This document shows, piece by piece, positions 28,171 through 42,743 of a DNA stretch of 64,000 nt. Position 1 is the first letter of the stretch. Each line of letters starts with the position of its first letter. Origin of the DNA: an uncultured Gemmatimonadales bacterium (GTDB lineage Bacteria; Gemmatimonadota; Gemmatimonadetes; Longimicrobiales; RSA9). The translations under genes and the position numbers were made by a program. Below the pieces are notes generated by a model that saw only the letters and a program-made list of their open reading frames with translations, searched no databases and was not told the DNA's origin. Where the stretch lies: contig CAWCUS010000005.1 of assembly GCA_963798845.1 (NCBI GenBank), positions 256,001 to 320,000 of the forward strand, written 5' to 3'.

Positions 28171-29106
28171 TCAGCTCCGGGGTTGGTGCCTCACCCGGGC
28201 GACCGTCGCCGGGCTGACGTCGAAGAAGCGAGCGATGACACCCGTGCGGAATCCACGCTCGGCCGCCTTACCGATCAGGTCGCTGCGCAGTTTCGCGTGC
28301 GGCCGAGGCAACCACGACCCCCGCAGCCGGTCCACCGGTGCCGCCCCGCCGGCACCTGCCAGCTGAGTCGCGATGAAGTCACGCAGGTCCGGAAGCCGAG
28401 CGTACGGGTGCAGCCGGGACCAGGACGGATTCAGAGGGAAAGTCTGCGCCCAAACCGCGTCGCCCGCCGGGAACTGAGGAGTGGATTCCAGCGGGGGCGA
28501 CGGGACCCAGGCCTCTCCCGTGCAATGGCTTCTTCCCCTCATGCGCCGAAGAAGGAGGGTCATGTAGTTGAGACATAGCATATTGTCCGATTGCCCACTC
28601 TCGGTTGCGAACAACTCGAGGATGATCCGACGGACCCGGGGATCCACCCCGGGCACGAGGATGTCCGCGTCTGGCTGGTAGACAGCGTGCGTCGTCCAGC
28701 GGTAGAGGAGGTCGTCGCCACAAAGCCCGGCGCGCCAAGGGTTCAGGTGCGCGTACACCAGCGCCTCGCGAACATGCGCGGCGCTCGCGCACAGGCGATC
28801 GCGGTACCGGCGTTCCACGACACCGCCCTGGAAGCGATGATATCGCTGCACCAGAAGAGCCACTCTCCGGAGGAGAGGCTGCATGACGGCCGAAAGGTCC
28901 ATGACGCCCTGGCGAAGCAGGATGTGGAGGTGATTCGGCATCACCGTGTAGGCGACGAGGCGCGCGTCCGTCCTCGCCACCATTCCGGCGACGAGCCCCG
29001 CGATCTCGTCGCGAAGCGCCGGCACGTACCAGGGCTCTCCCCTGTGCGTGCGCGTAACCAGATGGAAGATCATCCCCGGTGCGTACGGCCGCTTGCGTCT
29101 TCCCAT
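28171..29106 (-). CDS. REP-associated tyrosine transposase (RAYT, Y1_Tnp) with C-terminal HTH-like domain
   Basis: IFHLVTR; AYTVMPNHLHIL (HUH); VYAHLNPWRAGL (catalytic Tyr); YRWTT; IARFFDVSPATVAR. Confidence 0.88.
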   Translation of the reverse strand: MGRRKRPYAPGMIFHLVTRTHRGEPWYVPALRDEIAGLVAGMVARTDARLVAYTVMPNHLHILLRQGVMDLSAVMQPLLRRVALLVQRYHRFQGGVVERRYRDRLCASAAHVREALVYAHLNPWRAGLCGDDLLYRWTTHAVYQPDADILVPGVDPRVRRIILELFATESGQSDNMLCLNYMTLLLRRMRGRSHCTGEAWVPSPPLESTPQFPAGDAVWAQTFPLNPSWSRLHPYARLPDLRDFIATQLAGAGGAAPVDRLRGSWLPRPHAKLRSDLIGKAAERGFRTGVIARFFDVSPATVARVRHQPRS

Positions 29107-29158
29107 GCCCGAGCATGCTCCCGTCTCCGGGGCATCGCGATAGGCAGGTGCGCCAATC

Positions 29159-29184
29159 CGGAAAATGGAAACGTGGTCCGGGGT
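29159..29184 (-). repeat. Right arm of perfect 26-bp inverted repeat
   Basis: CGGAAAATGGAAACGTGGTCCGGGGT. Confidence 0.95.
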
Positions 29185-29209
29185 GGCGCGGGGTGGCGGG
29201 GTGGGGGGG

Positions 29210-29920
29210 TCAGGCCCACTCCCGGCGCGCACGCTCCAGGTCCTCGTGCGTCCCGATGTCGAACCATCGGGCGCCGGCCACGGTCCAGGGCGCGACACGC
29301 TCTCCGGCGGCCACGAGGCGCATGTAGGGGGTGAAGATGGAGAACTTCCCGCGCTCCTCGATGAGGGAGGGGAGCCGGGGCGAGACCACCGCGACGCCGA
29401 GGTAGTCGAGGCGGCGCTCGCTCCCCCGGGTCTCTCGGGCGCGGCGCTCGGAGCTGGCGTACGCGAATCCGACGAGGCCGTCGTCGTCGAAGATGAGGTA
29501 GCGGTCGCTCTCGGCAGGGCGGACGGCGAGGGTGGCCAGGTGCTCGGGCCGGTGAGCCCGCCAGAGTTGGCGGAGGTCGAGGTCCGTTAGGATGTCGGCG
29601 TTGTGGATGAGGATCGGGCGATCCCCGCGGAAATGGCGGGCCGCCTCGAGCAGCCCCCCGCCGGTCTCCAGCGGACCGTCGGGCTCCTCCGATACGCGCA
29701 CGTCGACGCCCCAGCCGTCGCGCTCCTCGATGTACGCGCGGATCCGGTCCGCGTGAGGCGACACGTTGACGACGATCCGGTCGGCCCCCGCGTCCACCAC
29801 CCGACGCGCGACGCGCTCCAGCACGGGCTCACCCCCGACATCGATGAGCGCTTTCGGGGTTTCGTACGTCAGCGGCCTCAGGCGCGTTCCGAGGCCTGCA
29901 GCCAGGATCATCGCATCCAC
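29210..29920 (-). CDS. Nucleotidyltransferase (MurU/NTP_transferase family)
   Basis: AMILAAGLGTRLRPLT..PKAL; LETGGG; NADILTD; WFDIGT. Confidence 0.9.
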   Translation of the reverse strand: MDAMILAAGLGTRLRPLTYETPKALIDVGGEPVLERVARRVVDAGADRIVVNVSPHADRIRAYIEERDGWGVDVRVSEEPDGPLETGGGLLEAARHFRGDRPILIHNADILTDLDLRQLWRAHRPEHLATLAVRPAESDRYLIFDDDGLVGFAYASSERRARETRGSERRLDYLGVAVVSPRLPSLIEERGKFSIFTPYMRLVAAGERVAPWTVAGARWFDIGTHEDLERARREWA

Positions 29921-30012: not shown

Positions 30013-31650
30013 TTGATCGGAATCGTGCACGGCTACGGCCTCGGCGGAGCCGGGAGCAACCTGTGGACCCGAGAAGTCGTGTCCGCGCTGTGCGAGACCG
30101 GACACACGGTGCACCTGATGTGCCAGGAGCGCACGCCGGAAATGTTCCGGTTCGTCGCCGAGCTCTGGACGTACGACGACGGCGGACGTCCTCACCGCGT
30201 CCTCGCGCAAGAGCCGGAGACGCCGGGCCGCTGCATCGTCCACCGGCCGGCGCTGGCCATCCTCCCGACCTACGTCCGGCCCGACCGGCCGTCGGAGTAC
30301 GTGCGCTCGATTCTCGACCTGGACGATGACGCGCTGACCGACTACCTCGAACGCAACGTCCGCGCCCTCCGCCAGATCGTCGCCGCCAGCGGCGTGCGAG
30401 CCTGGCACGTCAACCACGCGATCCTGCTGTCGGAGGCGCTCCGCCGCGTGAAGGAGAGCGACGGCATCGCGTACGCGGTCATGCCTCACGGCAGCGCCCT
30501 CGAGTACGTGGTCCGCCACGACCCGCGCATGCAGGCCATGGCCCGGCGCGCTCTGGCCTCCGCCGACCACGTCTTCGCCCTCGGACCGGAGATCCGAGAG
30601 CGACTCCATCGCTTCTTCCCGGACCTCGACCTCGAAGCCCGCACCACCACCCTGCGCGTCGGCGTGGACACGGGGCGGTTCCGGCCGGTGCCGCGCGAAG
30701 CGCGTGGCGACAGCATCGATCGGCTCACCGCCGCCCTCCACGACGTCGCCCGAGGCCACCGGCCCGAGCACTCCGCGCGGCTTCGCGACGCCCTCTCGCG
30801 ACAGATCGGCGCGGCCGAGCCGACAGCGGAGCGCGACCCTCTTCGCTCGGCCCTCGAGACGCCGGCCCCCTACGAGACCGCCCACCCGGACGCAGAGATC
30901 GAAGAGCGGCTCAGACAGGTGCATTGGCAGCGGGAGAACGTGGTCATCTTCGTGGGCCGCATCATCCCCGCCAAGGGTGTGCAGGCCCTCGTCGCCGCGT
31001 TCCCGCTCATCCTCGAGCGCATGCCGCAGACCCGGCTCCTCCTGGTCGGTGCCGGGTGGCTCCGCGAGTACCTCGAGGCGTTCGTCCTCGCCCTCTCCGC
31101 GGCAGATGGCGCGCGCGCGCGCCGCGTCCTCACATGGGCCGCGGAACGCGCTCAGGAAGGCGCGCGCCCCTCAGGGACGGCCTTCCTCCAGCGGCTGGTC
31201 GACTCCGGCCGCTTCCGCGGGTACGTGAATGCTGCCCACCGCCATCTCGAGCCCGAGCGAGTGATCTTCACGGGCTATCTCGCGCACTCGCTTCTCGCCC
31301 ACGTCTTCCCCCTGGCCGACGCCGCCGTGTTCCCGTCCGCCGTCGCCGAGGCATCCCCTCTCGTGCTGCCCGAAGCCGCGGCCTGCGGCTGCTTCCCCAT
31401 GGGCACCGATTTCGCCGGAATGCGCGACTCCCTCGATGCCCTCGCCCCTCACGTCCCTCCCGTTCTGCGCCCCCTCCTTCGCCTCGACCCCGACCCCGCC
31501 CGCACCGCCGACGACATCGCCCACCACGTTCTCGCCCTCCTCCAGCACCGCGGCGACGCCGGCCCCGCCCTGCGCGACGCCGCCGTGGCGGAGTACGACT
31601 GGCGCCGGATCGCCGAGACACTGGCCGAAGAACTGGCCCGGCTGACCTAG
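30013..31650 (+). CDS. Glycosyltransferase family 4 (GT-B)
   Basis: HGYGLGGAGSN; GVDTGRFRP; FVGRIIPAKG; FPS..EASPLVLPEAAACG (EX7E); YDWRRIA. TTG start at 30013 is inferred. Confidence 0.88.
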   Translation: MIGIVHGYGLGGAGSNLWTREVVSALCETGHTVHLMCQERTPEMFRFVAELWTYDDGGRPHRVLAQEPETPGRCIVHRPALAILPTYVRPDRPSEYVRSILDLDDDALTDYLERNVRALRQIVAASGVRAWHVNHAILLSEALRRVKESDGIAYAVMPHGSALEYVVRHDPRMQAMARRALASADHVFALGPEIRERLHRFFPDLDLEARTTTLRVGVDTGRFRPVPREARGDSIDRLTAALHDVARGHRPEHSARLRDALSRQIGAAEPTAERDPLRSALETPAPYETAHPDAEIEERLRQVHWQRENVVIFVGRIIPAKGVQALVAAFPLILERMPQTRLLLVGAGWLREYLEAFVLALSAADGARARRVLTWAAERAQEGARPSGTAFLQRLVDSGRFRGYVNAAHRHLEPERVIFTGYLAHSLLAHVFPLADAAVFPSAVAEASPLVLPEAAACGCFPMGTDFAGMRDSLDALAPHVPPVLRPLLRLDPDPARTADDIAHHVLALLQHRGDAGPALRDAAVAEYDWRRIAETLAEELARLT

Positions 31651-31751
31651 GAATGGCCCGCCATTCCGGCAGGATCCGGCACCGTCGGCCGCGTGTAGGG
31701 TGGCCGCCGACAACCCCACCGCAACGGAATCGGGAAATACCCTTCTTGCTT

Positions 31752-31769
31752 TTGTGATACTTTTCACAG
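31752..31769. promoter_or_regulatory. Rex/CRP-type operator TTGTGAT-ACTT-TTCACAG
   Basis: Exact TGTGA-N6-TCACA in an AT-rich island about 100 bp upstream of the hydrogenase operon. Confidence 0.7.
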
Positions 31770-31867
31770 ATTGTTCAGACGAGGGAGATGCCGGCAGGGG
31801 CGGCCGGGCTCCCGGAGCGCCGTACGGACGCGGCGATGGGACGTCCCGCCAAGGCCTGGAGACGGAG

Positions 31868-32287
31868 ATGCCAACGAAGAAGACGGTTCTGGTGATCGAT
31901 GACGACCGGGACTTCGCGGCATCGGTGAAATCGCTGCTGGAGAGCGAAGGATACGCGGTGGAGTGGGCGGAGTCCGGGAAGGCGGGGCTGCGCAGGCTCG
32001 GGGAAGCGCGGCCGGACCTGATCGTCCTGGACGTGATGATGGAGAGCATCGTGGAAGGGTACGCAGTGAACCAGGCGATCAAGTTCCAGCCGCAGTTCGA
32101 GGCGTACGCGGACATCCCGATCGTGATGGTGAGCAGCATCGAGGAGAGCCCGGACGAGCGGTTCGGGCGAGCGGGGGAAGTGGAGATGGTGCGGCCGACG
32201 CGCTACCTGACGAAGCCCCTGGACATTCCGGTCTTCCTCGAGGTGGTTGGCAAGCTGACGCGGCGCGGCGCGGCGGCGGGGTCGTAG
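31868..32287 (+). CDS. Single-domain response regulator
   Basis: VLVIDDD; PDLIVLDVMME; YLTKP; no output domain. Confidence 0.92.
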   Translation: MPTKKTVLVIDDDRDFAASVKSLLESEGYAVEWAESGKAGLRRLGEARPDLIVLDVMMESIVEGYAVNQAIKFQPQFEAYADIPIVMVSSIEESPDERFGRAGEVEMVRPTRYLTKPLDIPVFLEVVGKLTRRGAAAGS

Positions 32288-32337
32288 GGGGGGCGAGGGC
32301 TTAGCCTGGGAACGCCGACCGAGCGCCGGAGCGGGGA

Positions 32338-33522
32338 ATGAGCGAGGAGCGTGAAGGAGCCGAGCGGATCGTCGTGATCGACGACGATTATGCCATGCGG
32401 CTGTCGTGCCGACAGATCCTGTCGAAGACGGGCTTCGACGTGGAGGTGTACGAGGACGGGGCGCAGGGCCTGGTGGGTGTGGCGAGCCAGAAGCCGGCGC
32501 TGGTGGTGGTGGATCTCAAGATGCCCGGCCTCTCCGGGCTGGACGTGATCCGACGCGTTCACGAGATCGACCCCGAGATCGTGGTGGTGGTGATCACGGG
32601 GTACGCCACCATCGGCACGGCGGTGGAAGCGATGAAGTGCGGGGCGTACGACTTCCTGCCGAAGCCGTTCAAGCCGGACGAGCTGCGGATGATCGTGAGC
32701 CGCGGACTGGAGCGCCGGCGTCTGCTGCTGCGCTCGCGGGAGCTGGAGATGGAGCGGGAGCTGATGAAGCGGCGCTTCATGAGCTTCATGACCCATCAGC
32801 TGAAGTCTCCATTGGCGGCGATCCATCAGTACCTGGAGGTGCTGAAGCGTCTGGGAGACACGCCCGAGATGGAAGAGAAGCGGGCGGAATGGATCGACCG
32901 GTGCCTGAGCCGGACCACGGACCTGAGGCGGTTGATCGACGACTGGCTGACGCTGGCGAAAGCGGAGGGTGGTGGACTGGTCGGGCGTCGGGAACGGGTG
33001 GACGCCAAGAAGGTGGTCGCCGGGCTGCTGGCGGCCTACGAGGAGGTGGCCCGGTCGGCACGAGTGACGCTGTCGTCGGAGATGCCGGCGGACGAGTACC
33101 CGGTGGTAGGGGATCGGAACTGCCTGGTGGTGCTGCTGGAGAACCTGATCACGAACGGCATCGACTACAACCGCCCGGGCGGGAGCGTGACGGTGGGGGC
33201 GCACCAGGAGCCGGGAGAGGTGGTGGTGGAGGTCCGCGACACGGGCGTGGGAATCCCGGCGGAAGCGCAGGGCCTGCTGTTCGAGGAGTTCTTCCGCGTC
33301 CCGGCCGGAGACGAGTCGGCGGGCGCGTCGACGGAAGACGGACGGGGACGGAAGAAGCAGGGGACGGGGCTCGGGCTGCCGATCTGCAGGCGGATCGTGA
33401 ACGAGCTCGGTGGGGGGATCGAGGTGGAGAGCGAGGTGGGGGTGGGGACGACGTTCCGGGTGCGGCTGCCGGCGTACCGGCCGGCACCGCAGCCTGGCGA
33501 ACTGGAGGTGAGCACGGGATGA
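32338..33522 (+). CDS. Cytoplasmic hybrid REC-histidine kinase
   Basis: N-terminal REC (VVDLKMPG; FLPKPF); H-box THQLKSPL; DTGVGI; GTGLGL. Confidence 0.93.
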   Translation: MSEEREGAERIVVIDDDYAMRLSCRQILSKTGFDVEVYEDGAQGLVGVASQKPALVVVDLKMPGLSGLDVIRRVHEIDPEIVVVVITGYATIGTAVEAMKCGAYDFLPKPFKPDELRMIVSRGLERRRLLLRSRELEMERELMKRRFMSFMTHQLKSPLAAIHQYLEVLKRLGDTPEMEEKRAEWIDRCLSRTTDLRRLIDDWLTLAKAEGGGLVGRRERVDAKKVVAGLLAAYEEVARSARVTLSSEMPADEYPVVGDRNCLVVLLENLITNGIDYNRPGGSVTVGAHQEPGEVVVEVRDTGVGIPAEAQGLLFEEFFRVPAGDESAGASTEDGRGRKKQGTGLGLPICRRIVNELGGGIEVESEVGVGTTFRVRLPAYRPAPQPGELEVSTG

Positions 33523-33944
33523 CGAACTCCGAGCGGACCATCCTGGTGGTCGACGACGACCGGGACTACTCCGAGAGCCTTTCCACGTTCCTGCGGGCGC
33601 ACGGCTACCGCGTGGTGCAGGCGTTCGACGGGCGGGAGGGGCTGAAGCTAGCCCGGCTGGAGCAGCCGGAGCTGATCGTGATGGACGTGATCATGAACGA
33701 GCGGACGGAGGGGTTCTTCACCGTCCAGGAGATGCGTCACGAGCCGTCGCTGGACGGGGTCCCGATCTTCGTGGCGAGCTCGCTCTACGCCCAGGTGCCC
33801 GATTTCAAGATCGAGCCGGACCGGGGCTGGCTGGCGCACGACGAGTTCTTCGCGAAGCCGGTGGACCTGGACGCGCTGCTGGGCAGGATCGCGGCGCGGC
33901 TGAATGCGGAACCGGAGCCCGGAACCGGGGGGAGGATCGCGTGA
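33519..33944 (+). CDS. Single-domain response regulator (paralogue of 31868..32287)
   Basis: ILVVDDDRD; IVMDVIMNE; FAKP; 4-nt overlaps with both neighbours. Confidence 0.9.
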   Translation: MTNSERTILVVDDDRDYSESLSTFLRAHGYRVVQAFDGREGLKLARLEQPELIVMDVIMNERTEGFFTVQEMRHEPSLDGVPIFVASSLYAQVPDFKIEPDRGWLAHDEFFAKPVDLDALLGRIAARLNAEPEPGTGGRIA

Positions 33945-34969
33945 AGACCCTGCGAATGCCGAAGGACCGGCTCGATTTCTTCGCCTCCGTGCTCCAGCAG
34001 TTCGGGGAGGTCCACGCACCGGTGGAGCAGGACGGGGGCTACGCGTTCCAGCGCCTGCTGCGCTGGTCGGACGCGCGACTCGAGTACGACCGCACCGTGC
34101 TCCCGCCGAAGAAGTACTTCCTTCCTCCGCGGGAGACGCTGTTCACGTACGATGCGGTCAAGGGATACCAGGCGGGGTCGGAGGACCTGGACCGGCGCAT
34201 CATCCTGTTCGGGGTTCACGCCTGCGACATCTACGGGATCAACATCCTGGACGAGGTGTTCGGCGGAAAGTACCCGGACCCGTACTACCGGGCCCGGCGG
34301 CGGAACGTGGCGGTGATCGGGATCGACTGCACGCCGGACGAGCACTGTTTCTGCCGCTCGATGCGCGCCGACTTCGTGGACCACGGGTTCGACCTCTTCT
34401 TCTACGACATTGGCGACTACTACCTGACGCTGGTCGGCACCGCGCTCGGCGATGACATGGTGCTGGCCACCGGGTCGCTGTTCGAGGAGGTGGAGCCGGC
34501 GGACGTGGAGGAGTACAAGCGCCGCTCGTCGCTGAAAGCGGATGCCTTCCAGCTCGACGTCGACATCCGCGACCTCCCCGAAATCTTCGAGATGGAGTAC
34601 GGCGCGGAGATCTGGGAGGAGCTCGGGGAGAAGTGTCTGGCGTGCGGCAACTGCAGCATGGTCTGCCCCACGTGCTACTGCTACGACGTGAAGGACACGG
34701 TCGCCGCCGGGACGAGCAGCGGGTCCCGCCTGCGTTGCTGGGATTCCTGCCTGTTCTCCTCCCACGCCGCGGTGGCGGGCGGTGAGAACTTCCGCGAGCA
34801 CCGGGCGGACCGGATCAAGTTCCGGTTCTACCACAAGCAGCGGGGATTCGTGGCGGAGTACGGACGGCCGAGCTGCGTGGGGTGCGGCCGCTGCATCGTG
34901 GCCTGCCCCGTGGGGATCCACATCGCCCACGTGCTGAACGAGCTGAGGGGGGTGCACCATGAGGGCTGA
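33941..34969 (+). CDS. hydB: Group 3b [NiFe]-hydrogenase (sulfhydrogenase) beta subunit, 4Fe-4S
   Basis: CLACGNCSMVCPTCYC and CVGCGRCIVACP; HCFC; AsrA/HydB-like. Confidence 0.9.
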   Translation: MKTLRMPKDRLDFFASVLQQFGEVHAPVEQDGGYAFQRLLRWSDARLEYDRTVLPPKKYFLPPRETLFTYDAVKGYQAGSEDLDRRIILFGVHACDIYGINILDEVFGGKYPDPYYRARRRNVAVIGIDCTPDEHCFCRSMRADFVDHGFDLFFYDIGDYYLTLVGTALGDDMVLATGSLFEEVEPADVEEYKRRSSLKADAFQLDVDIRDLPEIFEMEYGAEIWEELGEKCLACGNCSMVCPTCYCYDVKDTVAAGTSSGSRLRCWDSCLFSSHAAVAGGENFREHRADRIKFRFYHKQRGFVAEYGRPSCVGCGRCIVACPVGIHIAHVLNELRGVHHEG

Positions 34970-35837
34970 GACGCTGACCACGGGCTGGCGGCCGGCCCCG
35001 GACTGGGAAGCCAATCCGTACCAGCCGGCGAACGCCCGAATCGTGCGGATCTTCAAGATGGTCCCGGACCATTACGTGTTCACGCTCCGGTTCGAGGATG
35101 AGAAGGCGGCGGACGCGTTCCGGCACCGGCCCGGGCAGTTCGTCATGCTGAGCGTCCCCGGCGCAGGCGAGGCGCCGATCTCCATCTCCTCGCCGCCCAC
35201 GCGCCGCGGTTACCTGGAGCTGTGCGTGCGACGGACCGGGCGCGTCACGAACGCTCTCTACCGTCTGCGCATGAACGACGTAGTGGGCCTGCGGGGGCCG
35301 TACGGGAACGGCTATCCGCTGGAACAGATGGAGGGCGGTGACCTGCTCCTGGCTGCGGGCGGGCTCGGGATGGCGCCGCTGCGCTCGCTGCTCTGGTACG
35401 CGCTGGACGAGCGCGAGAAGTTCGGCCGCGTGATCCTGATGTACGGGGGCCGCGAGCCGGCGCTCATGCTCTTCCGGGAGGAGATGGTCTCCCTTCTGGA
35501 CCGGGAAGACCTGGAGTGTCTGCTCACCGTGGACCGGGACCCGACGGGTACGTGGCCCGGTCACATCGGAGTGCTCGCGAGCCTGTTCGACGGCGTGTCG
35601 CTCGAGCCGGCCGTGACGCACGCGTGCGTGTGCGGCCCGCCCGTGGTGTACAAGTACGTGCTCGAGCGGCTGCTGGCGCTGGGGTTCTCGAAGGACAGGA
35701 TCCTCATGTCGCTGGAGCGGCGGATGAAGTGCGGCGTGGGCAAGTGCGGCCACTGCAGCATCGGCTACAAGACGACGTGCATCCACGGTCCGATCTTCAC
35801 GTACTGGGATGCCATCAACCTGCCGGAGATGATCTGA
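34959..35837 (+). CDS. hydG: Group 3b hydrogenase gamma subunit (FAD/NAD(P)-binding, 2Fe-2S)
   Basis: PGQFVML; GPYGNGYP; AGGLGMAPLRS; CGPP; ERRMKCGVGKCGHC...C. Confidence 0.92.
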   Translation: MRAETLTTGWRPAPDWEANPYQPANARIVRIFKMVPDHYVFTLRFEDEKAADAFRHRPGQFVMLSVPGAGEAPISISSPPTRRGYLELCVRRTGRVTNALYRLRMNDVVGLRGPYGNGYPLEQMEGGDLLLAAGGLGMAPLRSLLWYALDEREKFGRVILMYGGREPALMLFREEMVSLLDREDLECLLTVDRDPTGTWPGHIGVLASLFDGVSLEPAVTHACVCGPPVVYKYVLERLLALGFSKDRILMSLERRMKCGVGKCGHCSIGYKTTCIHGPIFTYWDAINLPEMI

Positions 35838-36589
35838 TGGGCAAGCCGACTGTAGGCATCTTCGGGCTCACGGGGTGCGCGGGGGACCAGCTGGCGATCC
35901 TGAACTGCGAGGACGAGCTGCTCCAGATCGTGGAGCTGCTGGACGTGCGCGACTTCCTGATGGCGAGCTCCGGCAACGACACGGCCGCCCATCTCGACAT
36001 CGCGCTGGTGGAAGGTGCCGTGCTGAGCCGACGGGACGAGGAGACGCTGAAGGAGATCCGGGCGCGGGCGGGGCTCGTCGTCGCCCTGGGCACGTGCGCC
36101 ATGCACGGCGGGGTCCCGATCATGGACCGGGACCACGACCGCGACGCCCTTCTGCGCCGCGTCTACGGAAGCGCGGGCGTACACTACGACGCCCACCCCA
36201 CCCGGCCGCTGCACCAGGTGGTCAAGGTGGACATGGGGATTCCCGGATGCCCGATCGAGAAAGACGAGTTCCTGGCGGCGATCGCGCACCTGCTGCACGG
36301 CGACCCGCCGCTCGCGGCGGCCTATCCGGTGTGCACCGAGTGCAAGGTCCGGGAGACGCAATGCCTGCTGGCACAGCCCGGCGCCTTCTGCATGGGTCCG
36401 GTCACGGCGGCCGGGTGCGGGGCACGCTGTCCGGCGCTGAGGATCGGCTGCGTCGGGTGCCGGGGACCGGCCGTGGACGCGAACCCCGCATCGCTGGCGG
36501 CGACATACGTGGAGCGCGGGATGCGGCCGGAAGCCGTCGCCCGGAAGATGAGGACGTTTGCGGCGACCCCCGTGGGGGAGGGCAACTGA
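35837..36589 (+). CDS. hydD: Group 3b hydrogenase small (delta) subunit
   Basis: GCAGDQ; VEGAV; GTCA; PGCP; CTECK..C..CMGPVT..GCGARCP..CVGCRG. Confidence 0.9.
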   Translation: MGKPTVGIFGLTGCAGDQLAILNCEDELLQIVELLDVRDFLMASSGNDTAAHLDIALVEGAVLSRRDEETLKEIRARAGLVVALGTCAMHGGVPIMDRDHDRDALLRRVYGSAGVHYDAHPTRPLHQVVKVDMGIPGCPIEKDEFLAAIAHLLHGDPPLAAAYPVCTECKVRETQCLLAQPGAFCMGPVTAAGCGARCPALRIGCVGCRGPAVDANPASLAATYVERGMRPEAVARKMRTFAATPVGEGN

Positions 36590-36590
36590 G

Positions 36591-37910
36591 ATGAGGAGCA
36601 CGACAGCGGTGGCCGGGCGACGCACCATCAAGGTGGATCACCTGGCGCGGGTCGAGGGGCACGGCGGGATCACCGTGGAGCTGGACGAGGATCGGATCGA
36701 GGCGGTCCGGTTCGACGTGTTCGAGGGAATCCGGCTCATCGAGGGGCTGGTGGGCGGTCGCAGCTGGGAGGACGTGTCGCAGATCGTGTCGCGCATCTGC
36801 GCCATCTGCTCCGTGGCCCACGCCCTGACTTCGATCCGGGCGACCGAGCGTGCCTTCGGCATCCAGCCCACGCACCAGACGGACCTCCTCCGGGACCTCA
36901 TGTGGCGGGGGGAGAACATCGAGAGCCACGCGCTCCACATCTTCCTCCTGGCCGCGCCGGACTACCTGGGCTACCCGAGCGCCCCGGCCATGGCGGCCGA
37001 TCACCCGGACGCGGTGGCGCTCGGACTTCGGCTGAAGCAGCTGGGAAACCGGATCCAGGAACTGATCGGCGGGCGGGCCATTCACCCGGTGAACGCCATC
37101 CCGGGCGGGTTCGGACGGGTGCCGGGGGAAGCGGCGCTCATCGAGCTGCGCTGCCAGCTGGAGCAGGCGAAGCCCGACATCGAGCGGACGCTGGAGCTCC
37201 TGCGCTCGCTGCCACGGACGGAGCCGCTGGACGCAGACACGGTGTACGCGGCGCTCCGTCCGGACAGGGAGTACCGCTACGACCAGGGCACCGAGGTGGT
37301 GTTCCTGCGGGACGGCAAGCGGCGGAGCGTCCCGGTGGACTCGCTGCGGAAGGTGGCGCCGGAGCACACCGTCGCCCATTCGCACGCGAAGCACACCACG
37401 CTCGACGGGCGGCCATTCATGGTGGGAGCGCTCGCGCGCCTGGCGGTGAACCGCGACCTGCTGCCGGATCGCGCCGCAGAGCTCCTCGACGACCTTGCCA
37501 TCCAGCTCCCGTCGCGCGACCCGCTGGACAACAACAAGGCCCAGGGAATCGAGCTGGCGCTCGACATCGACCGCTCCATCGAGCTCGTCGATGAGCTCCT
37601 CTCCCGAGGGCCGGAGCCGCAGCTCCCGCTCCGAATCCGGCCGCGCGCGGGGACGGGGACCGTGGTCAGCGAAGCGCCGCGTGGCACGCTGCTCCACAGC
37701 TACACGTACAACTCGGCCGGCAGCATCACGGCCGCCGACGTGATCACGCCCACGGCCTTCAACGCCGCGAGCCTGGAGGAGCACTTCCGCGCCGCAGTGC
37801 GCCGCGACGGCGTGGAGCACGAGGCCGCGCTCAAGCACACGCTGGAGATGATCGCTCGGGCCTACGACCCGTGCATCTCGTGCTCAGTACACCTCGTGAG
37901 GAGGAGGTAG
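36591..37910 (+). CDS. hydA: Group 3b [NiFe]-hydrogenase large (alpha) subunit
   Basis: RVEGHG; L1 motif RICAICSVAH; EAPRG; L2 motif YDPCISCSVH followed by a 5-aa cleavable tail. Confidence 0.94.
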   Translation: MRSTTAVAGRRTIKVDHLARVEGHGGITVELDEDRIEAVRFDVFEGIRLIEGLVGGRSWEDVSQIVSRICAICSVAHALTSIRATERAFGIQPTHQTDLLRDLMWRGENIESHALHIFLLAAPDYLGYPSAPAMAADHPDAVALGLRLKQLGNRIQELIGGRAIHPVNAIPGGFGRVPGEAALIELRCQLEQAKPDIERTLELLRSLPRTEPLDADTVYAALRPDREYRYDQGTEVVFLRDGKRRSVPVDSLRKVAPEHTVAHSHAKHTTLDGRPFMVGALARLAVNRDLLPDRAAELLDDLAIQLPSRDPLDNNKAQGIELALDIDRSIELVDELLSRGPEPQLPLRIRPRAGTGTVVSEAPRGTLLHSYTYNSAGSITAADVITPTAFNAASLEEHFRAAVRRDGVEHEAALKHTLEMIARAYDPCISCSVHLVRRR

Positions 37911-37918
37911 CGACTGGA

Positions 37919-39988
37919 GTGATCCGGGCCTTCTTCCGGAACCTGTCCCTCAGCGCCAAGCTGATCGCGAGCTATCTCGTCTTTCTCGGGATCGGCGGCC
38001 TGGCCATCACGGTGGTAGGCTCCACCATCGTGAGCTCCACCATCATGGCGGAGGCCGAACGCACGGTGAGCCACGACCTCGCCATCGCCCGGGCGATGTA
38101 CCGCCAGGACGTGCGGCTCCTCGACCGCACCGTGCGCGTGGCCGCCGCCGGAGACGAGCTCCGCGACCTCCTGCTGAGCGACGACACCGCGGCCATCCGC
38201 AGCTACCTCGGCCGGGTCCGCGCTCCCGGGCGTATGGACTTCCTGTCCGTGGCCGGCCCCGACGGCCGAGTCAGGGTCCGGGCTGCCCCCGGAGGCACCC
38301 GGCTCGATGATGCCGGCGCGCTCCCGGTGGTGGCGCAGGCGCTCGAGACCGGTCGGCCGCAGTCGGGGACCATGGTCATGTCCGCCGCCGAGCTCGAGCG
38401 GGAGGACCCGGCGCTGCGGACGCGCGCCCGCGTGCGCCTCAGCCCGACCCCCCGGGCAGAGCCCTCGGCGCGCCGCGAGGTCACGTCCGGCCTCGTCCTC
38501 TCCGCGGCCGCCCCCCTGCGCGCCGCCGACGGCCGCACCGTAGGGGTCCTCTACGCCGGACACCTGCTCAACGGCGACTTCGGGATCGTGGACGCCGTCT
38601 GGAACGAGCTGTACCGGGACAACACCAGCGGCGTGGGGGAGCTCGCCGGCACGGTCACCCTCTTCCTCGGCGACGTGCGCGTCTCCACCAACGTCCGCAC
38701 ACCCACGGGGGAGCGCGCCACGGGCACGCGCGTGTCGGCCCCGGTGGCCGAAGCGGTGCTGCAGCAAGGCGAGCGGTGGAACGGGCGCGCCTTCGTCGTG
38801 GACGACTGGTTCATCACCGCGTATGAGCCGCTGCGCGACGTCACCGGCAGAATCGTCGGGATGCTCTACGTCGGGCTGCCGGAGGCCTCCTACGTGGCCA
38901 CGCGCAACCGCGTCATCCTGTCCTTCATCGGGATCGCGACGGTCGGCTTCCTCCTCGTTCTCGCGGTCACCTACATCGGCATCCAGCGCATGACCCGGCC
39001 GCTCGCCCAGATGGTCGACGCCACGCGCAGCATCGCCGGGGGCGACTTCGACCACGAAGTGGAGGTCGACCCGCGCTCCGAAGGCGAGATCTCCCGCCTC
39101 GCCGGCTCCTTCAACTTCATGCTCCAGGGGCTGCGAGAGATGCGCGGCGACGTCGAGGAGTGGGCGCTGACGCTGGAAGAGAAGGTCCGCGAACGGACGG
39201 CTGAGCTGGTCAAGATGCAGGCCAGGGTGGCCCAGTCGGAGCGGCTGGCGTCGCTCGGGATGCTCGCCGCCGGCGTCGCCCACGAGGTGAACAATCCGCT
39301 GGGCGGCATCCTGGCGCTGACGTCGCTCACCCTCGAGGAGCTTCCCGAAGACCACCCGGAGCGGGAGAACCTGGAGGAAGTGGTCCGGCAGACCGAGCGC
39401 TGCCGCGACCTCGTCAAGCACCTCCTGGAGTTCTCACGCCAGACCGAGGTGAGCCCGGAGGAGATGAGCCTCAACGACGTGATCGAGCGCACGCTCGCCC
39501 TGCTGCGCCGCCAGTCGCTCTTCTTCAACGTCCGTGTCGACACGCACCTCGACCCCGACCTGCCCCCGATCTTCGGCGACAGCTCCCAGCTCGAGCAGGT
39601 GTTCATGAACATCCTCATGAACGCCGTCCAGGCCATGGACGAGCAGGGCACGATCACCATCACCACGCAACGTGCCGCCGGCGACGATGCCTTCGTCGAG
39701 CTCCTCTTCGCCGACACCGGCAAAGGCATCCCCCCGGAGCACCTCGGGCGCATCTTCGACCCCTTCTTCAGCACCGGCAAGGGCGGCCAGGGCACCGGTC
39801 TCGGACTCTCCATCGCCTACGGCATCATCAGCAAACACCGGGGCACCATCTCCGTCGAGAGCGACGTCGGCGTCGGCACCAGCTTCACCATCCGCCTCCC
39901 CGTCGCCGCCCGCTTTGCCGGCGCCGCCGAGGAGGACGGGATCGGGATTCCGGTCGTCGCCTGGCTCGGATCAGGAGGAGCAGAATGA
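37919..39988 (+). CDS. Membrane sensor histidine kinase (Cache-HAMP-HisKA-HATPase)
   Basis: Two TM segments around a Cache domain (TLFLGDVRVSTNV..GERATGT); LAAGVAHEVNNPL; FDPFFST; GTGLGL. Confidence 0.93.
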   Translation: MIRAFFRNLSLSAKLIASYLVFLGIGGLAITVVGSTIVSSTIMAEAERTVSHDLAIARAMYRQDVRLLDRTVRVAAAGDELRDLLLSDDTAAIRSYLGRVRAPGRMDFLSVAGPDGRVRVRAAPGGTRLDDAGALPVVAQALETGRPQSGTMVMSAAELEREDPALRTRARVRLSPTPRAEPSARREVTSGLVLSAAAPLRAADGRTVGVLYAGHLLNGDFGIVDAVWNELYRDNTSGVGELAGTVTLFLGDVRVSTNVRTPTGERATGTRVSAPVAEAVLQQGERWNGRAFVVDDWFITAYEPLRDVTGRIVGMLYVGLPEASYVATRNRVILSFIGIATVGFLLVLAVTYIGIQRMTRPLAQMVDATRSIAGGDFDHEVEVDPRSEGEISRLAGSFNFMLQGLREMRGDVEEWALTLEEKVRERTAELVKMQARVAQSERLASLGMLAAGVAHEVNNPLGGILALTSLTLEELPEDHPERENLEEVVRQTERCRDLVKHLLEFSRQTEVSPEEMSLNDVIERTLALLRRQSLFFNVRVDTHLDPDLPPIFGDSSQLEQVFMNILMNAVQAMDEQGTITITTQRAAGDDAFVELLFADTGKGIPPEHLGRIFDPFFSTGKGGQGTGLGLSIAYGIISKHRGTISVESDVGVGTSFTIRLPVAARFAGAAEEDGIGIPVVAWLGSGGAE

Positions 39989-40455
39989 CCGCTGAGCATC
40001 CCGTACTCGTCGTGGGCCTCGGGAATCCCCTCTCCGGCGACAATGGCGTCGGCTGCGCCCTCGCCCATGCCCTCGCCGCCCGCGCCGACCTCCCCGCCCA
40101 CGTCGAGGTCATCGAAGGCGGCAGCGACCTCCTCCGCCTCGAAAGCCGCCTCGAGGACCGCCGCTGGATCCTCCTCGTCGACGCCCTCCTCGACCCCGAC
40201 CAGCCCGGACGCCTGCTCCGCTTCGACGGCGACCTCGACGAGCTCGACCACCACGGCGGCAGCGTACACCACATGCCGCCCACCGCCGCCCTGCGCCTGC
40301 TCCGCTGCCTCTACCCTGCCCTCGCCGCTGTCCCCGTCACCTTCCTCGGCGTCACCATCGACGGTGCCACCGTGAGCACCAGCCTCTCCCCCGAGCTCGA
40401 CGCCCGCCTCGACGACCTCGCCGACGAGATCCTCGGCCTCATCGCCGGACGCTAG
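39985..40455 (+). CDS. Hydrogenase maturation protease (HycI/HybD family)
   Basis: VVGLGNPLSGDNGVG; LLVDA; SVHH; ATGA overlap with the kinase gene. Confidence 0.88.
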   Translation: MTAEHPVLVVGLGNPLSGDNGVGCALAHALAARADLPAHVEVIEGGSDLLRLESRLEDRRWILLVDALLDPDQPGRLLRFDGDLDELDHHGGSVHHMPPTAALRLLRCLYPALAAVPVTFLGVTIDGATVSTSLSPELDARLDDLADEILGLIAGR

Positions 40456-40754
40456 CCGCCGACGGCGCGCCGCCCCGCCGTCCGCCGCGCGCCAGCGCGG
40501 GCTCTTCCGCGCCTGCCTTCGACGGCGACCGACCGCGGGCGCGTCGTTCCGGCCCATTGGCTCCGACCGGATGCAAGCGCCGCGGGTGTAGGGGTTTGCC
40601 TGACATCCTGCGGCCCTCGACGTAGGGAAACACACCACAACACTCTTGCGCTTTGGGTCGGGCGGATCCATCGTCCGCTTTTACAATGCCAAGGTCCAGA
40701 ACCGGCGGCAGCCGTCCCGGCTACGCCCGGATCCCCCCTGTTTCGGAGGTTTGG

Positions 40755-42743
40755 ATGCGTTCAAGCGCAGTTCTACCCGTGTGGGCTCGACCGGGGCTCG
40801 CCGCGGGTCCAGTGCTCGCCCTGTTCCTTCTTGCCGGCTGCGATGCCGGCGGACCCGCGAGCCTGATCTCCGCCGAAACGCCGAGCGCGGAGATCGTCGA
40901 TGGCGCGCACGGCGGGAGCTACGGCGGTTTCCTGTTCCTGCCGCCGATGGTCGCGAACCCGGACCTGAGCGGACAGACGCCGATCGGGGGCCTGGCCCCG
41001 CGCGTGGAGGTCTGCGTCGTGGACATGAGCGCGCAGCCGTGGGAGTGCGACGGTGCTTCAGTTCTGACGTTCGGGCCTGCGCAGATCGCGTACGTGAGCG
41101 ATCACTATCAGGTCGACTGGGACACGCAGAACCCGTTTCCCGTGGAGCCGACGTCGACGGGCGATACGACCACGTATAGGCTGACCGTATTTCTGGGATC
41201 GGTGGCGCTGGGCCACGTGGACCTGCAGTTCGGGAGCAACGGGGGGTCGGCGAAGAACCTGAGCACCTCCGACGTGGTGGGGTTGAAGGACGGCCGTACC
41301 ATGCCGGTGAAGTTCTTCCTCGGCACCGAGCTCTACGACGACATCTGCGGCGACGGGAACGACTGCAAGCTGGCCACTGCATACCCGGGGCAGGACAACC
41401 TGATCGTGACGCGGGATGGCGACGCGCTCCTCTACATCCCCGAGGGCGCGCTGCCGCCGGGCGGGCCGTACCACGTGACGATCGAAGAGAAGGCCTGCAC
41501 GCTCAACTTCCCGGCGGACCTGCCGCAGGGATCCTATCTCCCGGAGTACAACTCGTGCTACGAGTACACGATCGATGAGGACCCGACGCTGCTCGCGCCG
41601 TTGACGGTTGGCCAGTGCCGGGCAGACACGACGGAGATCCCGGCGGGTCACGAGGACGAGGTCCAGCTCGGGGCGCACCACACGGACCCGCCGGCGGGGG
41701 TTCCCGAGTACGAGCTGCTCCCGAACACCGATCTGCCGGCGGCGCTGAGCTGCGATGACTACACGCCGCCCGGCACGCAGATCAGCTTCCTGAGACGCGG
41801 GATCCGCGGCGTTCGGGACTTCTTCCTGGGCGAGCCGGCGTACGCGGGGCACCTGGGGCTGGGAGGGAGCGTCCGCGACCTGTCCACGATCAAGTGGGTG
41901 GACCCGGGTCTGCGGGTGGCGGGCTACACGACGGCCCGGGGTGGATTCGTCGGGGTCCGGTCCGTTGCGCTGGCCGACGCCATGAGCGTGCTCGTGGGGC
42001 AGTACGGCTATGTCTGGCGCGACACGGCCTCGACGCTGAGCTCGTCGCTCTTCGACCCGGACGTGGACGTGGCGCTGCTGGGCACGGGCGCCTCGAACGG
42101 GTCGACGATCTCGGCCCTGAGCTCGGCTGAACAGAGTGCCCTGCACGACTTCGTGGCGAACGGCGGCTGCGCGATCCTGCTGCCGGACAACGACACGTTC
42201 GGCGGGACCGGTACGGACGCGGTGAACGAGAGCCTGATCGACCCGTTCGGCCTGGATATCACAGGAACGCTCAACAATCAGCGGACGGCGACCACGAGCG
42301 GCAACCTAGCGGTCGTCAGCGGCGTCCCGAGCTTCCTCCAGAACTACCCCGGGTGGTTCGATGGGACCGGTGCTGGAACGCCGTTCGCCAGCAACGACGG
42401 CGGGGTGGCCGCGCTGGAGATCGAGCCTGGCGTGATCGGCACAGGCTCGGGCCCCGTGTTCGCCTTCAGTGACGTGAACCAGTTCTTCGGCGGCAACGCT
42501 GCCGGGTTGATCGGCAACCTCAGCAATCAGAAGCTGCTCCTGAACTCGGTCGCCGCCTGCGGCACCGAGCCGGCACCGCCTCCCCCCCGCCGGTCGATTG
42601 ATGATTGGCCGCGGACAGGCCCGGGCGTCGTCGCGCCCGGGCCGCCGCGCTCGGAGAAGGGGGAAGCTCCCGTGCGGCTTCCCGGCACACTCCGCCGGGG
42701 AGCCGCCACGGGCATTCGGCGGGGGGTCCTGCCGGACCTGTGA
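40755..42743 (+). CDS. Large Cys-containing hypothetical lipoprotein
   Basis: GGAGG SD; lipobox LAGC; beta-rich N-terminal half; C-terminal half resembles a GATase/ThuA-like fold (weak). True end may be near 42601. Confidence 0.7.
   Translation: MRSSAVLPVWARPGLAAGPVLALFLLAGCDAGGPASLISAETPSAEIVDGAHGGSYGGFLFLPPMVANPDLSGQTPIGGLAPRVEVCVVDMSAQPWECDGASVLTFGPAQIAYVSDHYQVDWDTQNPFPVEPTSTGDTTTYRLTVFLGSVALGHVDLQFGSNGGSAKNLSTSDVVGLKDGRTMPVKFFLGTELYDDICGDGNDCKLATAYPGQDNLIVTRDGDALLYIPEGALPPGGPYHVTIEEKACTLNFPADLPQGSYLPEYNSCYEYTIDEDPTLLAPLTVGQCRADTTEIPAGHEDEVQLGAHHTDPPAGVPEYELLPNTDLPAALSCDDYTPPGTQISFLRRGIRGVRDFFLGEPAYAGHLGLGGSVRDLSTIKWVDPGLRVAGYTTARGGFVGVRSVALADAMSVLVGQYGYVWRDTASTLSSSLFDPDVDVALLGTGASNGSTISALSSAEQSALHDFVANGGCAILLPDNDTFGGTGTDAVNESLIDPFGLDITGTLNNQRTATTSGNLAVVSGVPSFLQNYPGWFDGTGAGTPFASNDGGVAALEIEPGVIGTGSGPVFAFSDVNQFFGGNAAGLIGNLSNQKLLLNSVAACGTEPAPPPPRRSIDDWPRTGPGVVAPGPPRSEKGEAPVRLPGTLRRGAATGIRRGVLPDL

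Follow-up and report, generated by a model that had tools for sequence, protein, structure and literature searches.

What are four signalling proteins without a recognizable DNA-binding domain doing in the operon of a [NiFe]-hydrogenase? The question is raised by nine open reading frames (ORFs) in a 64,000-nucleotide stretch of DNA (hereafter the window) from an uncultured Gemmatimonadales bacterium (GenBank assembly GCA_963798845.1, contig CAWCUS010000005.1, positions 256,001 to 320,000 of the forward strand), whose genome is designated G000. All nine are on the + strand, in the order REC1, REC-HK, REC2, hydB, hydG, hydD, hydA, Cache-HAMP kinase and protease, and the ORF calls and the Pfam and NCBIfam matches bear out this order and the domains that an earlier note, made from the letters alone, had assigned. 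A histidine kinase is likewise tied to a [NiFe]-hydrogenase locus in the H2-sensing systems HoxBC-HoxJ-HoxA and HupUV-HupT-HupR, but these have a group 2b sensor, a PAS kinase and an NtrC-type output, none of which is found in the operon described here. We report that the four signalling genes (REC1, REC-HK, REC2 and the Cache kinase; together, the cassette) track one clade of group 3b hydrogenases across two bacterial phyla. The cassette-hydrogenase system is real and conserved, and apparently undescribed; our literature search, whose coverage left out most subscription journals, found no published account of it. The features of the locus are as follows.

31752..31769, + strand: Rex-type operator TTGTGATACTTTTCACAG, 116 nucleotides (nt) 5' of the REC1 start, 12/14 match to the Rex consensus
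31868..32287, + strand: REC1, single-domain response regulator of 139 amino acids (aa), with D55, S89, K116 and the motif DVMMExxEGY; Pfam Response_reg only
32338..33522, + strand: REC-HK, soluble REC-HisKA-HATPase protein of 394 aa, no hydrophobic helix
32794..32814, + strand: H-box HQLKSPL of REC-HK, Gln replacing Glu/Asp after the phospho-His
33519..33944, + strand: REC2, single-domain response regulator of 141 aa, with D56, S87, K113, MxERTEGFF and W104
33941..34969, + strand: hydB, Fe-S beta subunit, group 3b; best NCBIfam matches ShyB/HydB, under cut-off
34571..34600, + strand: acidic patch DLPEIFEMEY of HydB, residues 211-220; speculative candidate docking site
34959..35837, + strand: hydG, FAD/NAD(P)-binding gamma subunit (Pfam and NCBIfam)
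35837..36589, + strand: hydD, hydrogenase small subunit (Pfam and NCBIfam)
36591..37910, + strand: hydA, [NiFe] large subunit, RICAIC ... DPCISCSVH plus a 5-residue tail
37919..39988, + strand: Cache-HAMP kinase of 689 aa, transmembrane (TM) helix-dCache-TM-HAMP-HisKA-HATPase, canonical HEVNNP box
38648..38875, + strand: membrane-proximal sCache_3_3 module of the Cache kinase, with T247, F249, R254, T257, T270, Y302 and Y317
39985..40455, + strand: hydrogenase maturation protease, Pfam HycI; TIGR00072 above cut-off

The cassette and its hydrogenase clade

The enzyme has the full four-gene set of HydB (Fe-S), HydG (FAD/NAD(P)), HydD and HydA, the only group 3b set in G000. The best NCBIfam matches of HydA are sulfhyd_HydA/ShyA, at scores that do not reach the equivalog cut-offs of these archaeal models; compared with PDB entries 9NEZ, 5YXY and 9E15 it gives E values of about 1e-94 to 1e-95, versus 1e-47 with group 3c, and HydB matches the sulfhydrogenase beta subunit 9NEZ_B at 1e-84. 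HydA, closest to sulfhydrogenase alpha, retains the N- and C-terminal CxxC nickel ligands. These comparisons support the earlier assignment of the enzyme to group 3b, for which H2:NAD(P) activity and a corresponding cofactor preference are predicted. The B-G-D-A subunit order, nickel-binding Cys motifs, short tail and protease are shared with Pyrococcus/Thermococcus sulfhydrogenases I and II (9NEZ, 9E15, 5YXY) and with Hyh of Mycobacterium smegmatis, but the enzyme here represents a bacterial clade of its own, with HydA 35-40% identical to that of the other bacterial group 3b enzymes seen, and is accompanied by signalling genes. The hyp genes of G000 are on contig C1, adjoining an apparent group 1 uptake hydrogenase. 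Group 3b HydA matches in G174, G411 and G366 (loci L034-L036) each contain one in-frame TGA, possibly encoding selenocysteine.

The close clade was delimited by a HydA identity of 54% or more. HydA was matched in nine of 61 relatives. All four signalling genes, arranged as described here, are present in G001, G032, G007 and G014; G005 (HydA 70%) has none of them at its locus, nor do the distant group 3b operons of G013 and G036. A 401-genome sample of the source phylum gave matches in 28 genomes, of which 20 regions were examined, six low-scoring places being left out. The close clade occurs there in G000, G005, G083, G118 and G220, with the cassette in all except G005 and a rearranged order in G220; eight other group 3b operons have no cassette. 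Close REC-HK orthologues (E<1e-170) are present in exactly four of the 401 genomes (G000, G083, G118 and G220), all with the clade.

The same association recurs in Acidobacteriota, where close REC2 genes were found in five of 401 sampled genomes, all adjoining the same hydrogenase clade. Among 151 genomes of one family of that phylum, 62 contain a group 3b-like HydA and 21 the clade. REC2 matches are confined to 18 of these 21 carriers, and a true cassette is present in 17/21, the REC2 match of G874 being a less closely related receiver. The cassette is missing from all 130 family genomes without the clade, including 41 with another group 3b enzyme. Cassette and enzyme lie on different contigs in G946 and G904 and still co-occur; REC1 was not found at the cassette loci of G883 and G732. 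A pattern scan of metagenomes yielded at least 120 stretches, near-duplicates included. At 80 loci among the matches listed, the gene 3' of REC2 is hydB (43) or the Cache kinase (29), eight loci ending at a contig edge and none having another gene, and the clade enzyme is present at 13 of the 15 loci with long flanks among the matches listed. Because near-duplicates and kin are not independent, these figures are given as counts, with no statistical test. Genome contigs scanned with the REC2 alignment gave two close loci among the matches listed, and with HydA alone no match; in the phylum of G441 (Anaerolineae), 401 genomes yielded distant REC-HKs only. Four fusions (P0121, P0122, P0123 and P0125) were apparent frameshift or deletion artefacts joining neighbours and were not counted. 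One further contig (P0168) has the maturation protease fused to a DVMM..EGF-type receiver, which may be read-through or an artefact.

In many genomes this gene set is thus found with that one hydrogenase clade, so the operon arrangement is beyond chance, and the conserved synteny on which the earlier note had made its reading depend is found across two phyla. The interleaving itself is not essential, as the cassette/clade link persists through five gene orders and unlinked copies. A quick IQ-TREE analysis of HydA (60 rows, six of them outgroups) recovers the cassette-linked clade as monophyletic (node value 98). Each of its two deep branches contains the interleaved order, and detached or lost cassettes are grouped in one 15-row subclade (100); rows L252, L288, L384 and L073 of that tree are wrongly labelled 'none', their REC-HK being truncated or frameshifted. 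G005 is sister to G000/G001 (100), and three genome-wide queries found no cassette in its 95% complete assembly. From these results we take the interleaved arrangement to be ancestral and the state of G005 to be a loss.

The four stop/start overlaps listed in the earlier note are all present: ATGA at 33519-33522 (REC-HK/REC2), GTGA at 33941-33944 (REC2/hydB), TGATG at 35837 (hydG/hydD) and ATGA at 39985-39988 (Cache kinase/protease); hydB and hydG overlap by 11 nt. That they tie signalling to enzyme genes is correct for two junctions only, REC2/hydB and Cache kinase/protease. The one at 35837 joins enzyme genes to each other, REC1 and REC-HK are separated by 50 nt, and hydA and the Cache kinase do not overlap, the kinase most likely starting at the GTG at 37919, 8 nt past the hydA stop and with GGAG in front. 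No gene starts at position 31752, where the feature had been made to begin: the letters there are TTG-TGA and the Rex-type operator opens with this base, and REC1 begins at the ATG at 31868. Beyond the operon, a 696-aa lipoprotein-like ORF without Pfam or NCBIfam match lies at 40653-42743 (+ strand) and also follows the operon in G001. A Y1 (IS200-like/RAYT) transposase-like ORF at 28171-29298 (- strand) is flanked by repeated GGAAAATGGAAACGTGGTCCGGGG-type sequences, and a similar gene occurs near the G005 locus.

Two kinase-like proteins, two receivers and a candidate target

The phospho-Asp, Thr/Ser and Lys residues are intact in all three receiver domains. REC1 D55, S89 and K116 are found in 65/65 homologues, REC2 D56, K113 and W104 in 97/97, and REC-HK D59 and K109, together with its N, D and G boxes, in 74/74. 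REC-HK is unusual in its H-box, in which Gln (Q154) follows the phospho-His in 74/74 homologues where canonical bifunctional HisKA proteins have Glu/Asp (PMC3510030), and Thr/Ser stands at H+4 in 70/74. Only two of 48 scored kinases in G000 have this Gln, the other 46 having Glu/Asp. In CrdS, the substitution E372Q abolishes kinase activity and leaves phosphatase activity (PMC3510030). CrdS E372Q and NtrB E140Q resemble REC-HK in the Gln, the Thr/Ser at H+4 and the intact ATP boxes, but they are laboratory mutants (PMC3510030), whereas the Gln here is natural, invariant and in a REC-fused protein. REC-HK is therefore predicted to be a receiver-gated phosphatase or a weak kinase; natural His-Gln kinases may retain activity. 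The Cache kinase, by comparison, has an HE[IV]NNP box in 54/54 homologues, which fits the H-E/D-x-x-T/N pattern. The phosphoryl groups rather probably come from the Cache kinase, with REC-HK, gated by its own receiver, acting mainly as an opposing phosphatase. A kinase/phosphatase pair controlling REC1 and REC2 seems likelier than a linear relay, since the same Gln leaves CrdS as a phosphatase only. The four-protein phosphorelay of the earlier note thus keeps its intact phospho-residues and is otherwise doubtful, because of the kinase-impairing His-Gln box and because a Pfam search of the operon proteins found no HPt domain for a multistep relay, although the DHp His of REC-HK could still serve.

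The extracytoplasmic sensor proposed in the earlier note is borne out: two hydrophobic helices flank a periplasmic region that is modelled as a double Cache fold (pLDDT 93). The only PDB sequence matches of the Cache module are 8PY0 and 8PY1, both formate complexes. The formate ligands of 8PY0 are R111, T100 and Y160, and F175 forms a size-limiting pocket floor that excludes larger acids (PMC11804620); counting along the alignment of the two modules places R254, T247, Y302 and Y317 at these positions. The Thr/Arg/Tyr triad is kept in 51/54 homologues, and two further pocket Thr are conserved, as in formate sensors. Formate has also been reported for another sCache_3_3 domain (PMC12415202). PacF, Atu0526, 8PY0 and 8PY1 share with the module here the sCache_3_3 / Cache_3-Cache_2 match, the Thr/Arg/Tyr ligands and the two additional Thr, but nearly all of them are chemoreceptors (PMC11804620), whereas the protein here is a histidine kinase. 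Its formate-type module is membrane-proximal, unlike that of PacF, and this counts against the ligand proposed, as do the Tyr (Y317) in place of the floor Phe (Ser 21, Tyr 18, Ala 6, Gly 4, Phe 2 and other 3 among the 54 homologues), a degenerate pocket in G007 and a G032 sensor kinase that has no Cache domain. As the floor Phe is replaced, we file the module as formate-like rather than as a member of the formate sensors. The cases of G007 and G032 indicate that ligand sensing is dispensable in some carriers; the gene in G032, a single-contig genome, is a natural sensor-less variant in which the Cache domain was lost in frame, leaving a 441-aa TM-HAMP-HisKA-HATPase protein (L012:11369-12694). 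As judged from the pocket residues, the Cache kinase probably binds some small carboxylate, and there is about an even chance that this is formate, the best guess for the Tyr-floor version of the pocket. G000 encodes a formate dehydrogenase alpha subunit (above cut-off), beside a NuoF-like gene, and an FNT-family channel. Pyruvate formate-lyase was considered as a formate source and set aside, the match in question not being shown to be a true member of that family.

A hint as to the partner of the receivers comes from the cassette-less G005. The ratios of derived changes between G005 and G000 are 63:10 in HydB, 26:13 in HydG, 20:17 in HydD and 39:44 in HydA. This is an acceleration of HydB and not a replacement, because the G005 protein is still closest to that of G000. 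Within the clade HydB is better conserved (72%) than HydA (59%), unlike in three small control sets of other group 3b enzymes. The patch DLPEIFEMEY is shared by carriers from each of the two deep branches, is not conserved in the other group 3b clades aligned and has five changes in G005 (permutation p 0.037 for a segment chosen post hoc). On the side of the receivers, the AlphaFold model of REC2 has a loop and a short helix at the usual alpha-4 site, with the invariant W104 and the conserved ERTEGFF, and suggests a protein-binding face there. MSMEG_2064 / Rv3143, a stand-alone response regulator from the mycobacterial nuo operon, is a subunit of complex I (PMC10068793; PMC9274095). Like REC1 and REC2, MSMEG_2064 is a lone receiver whose gene lies in a redox-enzyme operon; it differs in being a complex I-bound orphan whose kinase is unknown (PMC10068793; PMC9274095), whereas the operon here encodes two receivers, two kinase-like proteins and a hydrogenase. 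No close sequence kinship of our receivers with MSMEG_2064 was seen. By this analogy REC2, and perhaps REC1, might bind HydB/HydG and tune activity or assembly, a proposal to which we give slightly less than even odds. It is weakened by the facts that the HydB relaxation is a single event, that two carriers have HydB ratios (2.36 and 2.25) near that of G005 (2.66), and that G903 and G874, in which the cassette was not found, have only three and two breaks of conserved HydB columns (median 5). The latter two genomes may have lost the cassette recently or be incompletely assembled, and in their subclade it is often unlinked.

Transcription, sister cassettes and rival outputs

The CRP family shares the palindromic core TGTGA-N6-TCACA that is also characteristic of the Rex-type box. 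Four perfect cores exist in the source genome: before rex, before the nuo (complex I) operon (G000:C5:122994), here (31752) and within a gene. The box lies 116 nt 5' of REC1 in G000 and G001 and 114 nt 5' of hydB in the cassette-less G005. It was matched to the Rex consensus of PMC6391272, and agrees with the operator TTGTGAANNNNTTCACAA of Rex-regulated hydrogenase genes of anaerobes described there. Both a predicted operator in the promoter and rex (two genes) are present in the genome, as expected of a Rex regulon member. Because the box is kept in G005 without the cassette, transcription in the source genus is probably handled separately, by Rex in response to NADH/NAD+. Within the clade, however, the putative operator is confined to these three genomes and was found in none of the other carriers scanned. 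The second rex of G000 and a Rex-like box, outside the window at G000:C3:125700-139400 (L431), immediately precede aprB-aprA, Hdr/Qmo-like, sat and DsrC-family genes, a dissimilatory sulfur gene cluster.

Other signs of a transcriptional output at the locus are scarce. Just two of 106 carrier loci have a sigma-54 activator (the class searched) beside the cassette, in agreement with the earlier note, which had seen no DNA-binding output here and no DNA-binding domain in the four signalling proteins; none of the four matches a DNA-binding Pfam family. A sigma-54 promoter, GG-N10-GC, picked out by eye in three upstream regions, was rejected as not enriched over shuffles (7/63 and 2/16 at p<=0.1), and sigma-70-like TATAAT words are enriched in carrier upstream regions. 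A de novo operator search of 36 upstream regions gave nothing convincing (best palindrome 8 versus a shuffle maximum of 7). Within 31600-40700 no sigma-70 site was found at threshold, and terminator-like matches are about as frequent as expected by chance (3 versus 2.1).

Cassettes of this type extend beyond group 3b. Sister cassettes, consisting of a Cache kinase with the same T/F/R/T/T/Y pocket, a REC-HK and one receiver, occur in group 3c/Hdr operons (nine examined loci) and in group 4 operons, and related receivers occur at [FeFe] loci, so the type is general to H2/redox operons. REC-HK retains His-Glu in the sister cassettes of the 3c and group 4 operons; two receivers and a His-Gln REC-HK mark the version here. 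In nine genomes of two phyla (L446-L454; G334, G366, G126, G163, G1215, G1164, G1056, G1101 and G1182), Cache-HK, REC-HK and REC genes lie within or ahead of Hdr-Mvh (3c-like) operons that carry Etf genes. At L075, L197, L203, L205 and L455, REC, Cache-HK and REC-HK are the last genes of operons for group 4-type membrane hydrogenases that include AsrA/AsrB-like genes. At L192:562-2583 and L193:7475-9508, related receivers adjoin histidine kinases that carry, as a fusion, an Fe-S domain like that of [FeFe]-hydrogenases.

We tentatively favour, at a little under an even chance, a reading in which a group 3b hydrogenase has a co-inherited cassette whose Cache kinase senses a formate-like acid and sets receivers acting on the HydB(G) arm. 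The membrane-bound Cache kinase would sense outside formate or a similar small carboxylate and phosphorylate the stand-alone receivers REC1 and REC2; REC-HK, gated by its receiver, would oppose it as a phosphatase; and REC2, perhaps with REC1, would act on the electron-transfer arm HydB(G). With Rex, the enzyme would be made at high NADH and its activity adjusted to outside formate as an alternative electron sink or carrier. The fullest form of this proposal, a directly switched hydrogenase in which a formate-reading kinase, a naturally kinase-dead phosphatase and receivers on HydB gate NAD(P)H/H2 flow, as one clade's version of a formate/H2-balancing cassette that recurs among group 3b, 3c, 4 and [FeFe] hydrogenases, is doubtful. 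Several observations tell against our reading: related genomes in the counts are not independent, two of the 15 long metagenome loci among the matches listed have no clade hydrogenase that we found, and the Cache kinase has an NtrB/AtoS-type core, in a genome with 15 ORFs that contain the sigma-54 activator motif GAFTGA. These last two facts would suit an output in trans, in which the target of the Cache kinase is an unlinked DNA-binding regulator (e.g. NtrC-type) of hydrogen or formate genes, and REC1, REC2 and REC-HK, co-expressed with the enzyme, are phosphate sinks and feedback elements. A REC-sigma54-AAA gene does adjoin the cassette in G706 and G670, the cassette is a separate unit in one subclade, and a precedent exists in M. 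smegmatis, whose group 3b Hyh is under transcriptional control by DosS/T-DosR (10.1101/2023.09.11.557286), unlike the operon here, which lacks a DNA-binding output. The view in the earlier note that group 3b enzymes are not known as signalling hubs is amended by the same example: two-component control of such an enzyme is known, though it is transcriptional (10.1101/2023.09.11.557286). We consider the trans output unlikely, given the rarity of an activator beside the cassette, the lack of enrichment of the sigma-54 motif (7/63) where TATAAT is enriched, the absence of a shared operator palindrome, the HydB-specific relaxation in G005, and the strongly conserved non-catalytic surface residues of REC1 and REC2, which are unexpected of mere sinks.

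Two other cassettes point away from a dedicated partnership: that of G439 precedes a CCG-domain Fe-S/Etf cluster in a genome in which no group 3b enzyme was found, and that of G670 lacks REC2 and has no clade enzyme. Taken with the sister cassettes in 3c/Hdr, group 4 and [FeFe] operons and with the formate dehydrogenase and FNT-family channel of G000, the G439 case would fit a cassette that serves formate/H2 metabolism generally, its receivers acting on formate dehydrogenase, a formate channel or another oxidoreductase, and its link to the hydrogenase reflecting shared conditions. This is improbable, for the cassette follows one clade strictly (0/41 genomes with only other group 3b enzymes), the REC2 stop overlaps the hydB start, and G670 is without REC2 as well as without the enzyme. 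The flow of information could also be reversed, from the redox state of the hydrogenase through REC2 to REC-HK, there integrated with the Cache signal and sent elsewhere, the enzyme being partly a sensor. Two inputs and no local output, the [FeFe]-hydrogenase-like sensor kinases with related receivers at other loci, and a HydB constraint that fits binding in either direction are in keeping with this idea. We regard it as the least probable, as HydA is built like an ordinary catalytic group 3b subunit, cleavable tail and protease included, neither kinase has a redox-sensing domain in Pfam, and receivers normally act downstream of kinases.

Hydrogen or formate as electron carrier

To our knowledge, the hydrogenase regulation described so far is mostly transcriptional (HoxA/HupR, DosR, Rex). 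The system reported here extends a known theme, that of receiver-only regulators in redox-enzyme operons, and direct switching of the enzyme by receivers would control hydrogen metabolism in a different way. The carriers seen appear to be metagenome-assembled genomes with no isolate identified among them, so heterologous expression will be needed for their study. Specific residues (R254, Q154, D55/D56 and HydB 211-220) can be named for testing, and natural deletion variants are at hand, G005 without the cassette and G032 without the sensor domain. If the favoured reading is true, the cassette would offer a means to switch an NAD(P)H-linked hydrogenase. It would also bear on an unsettled question of fermentation and interspecies electron transfer, by showing how anaerobic bacteria of peat and sediment choose between H2 and formate as electron carrier.

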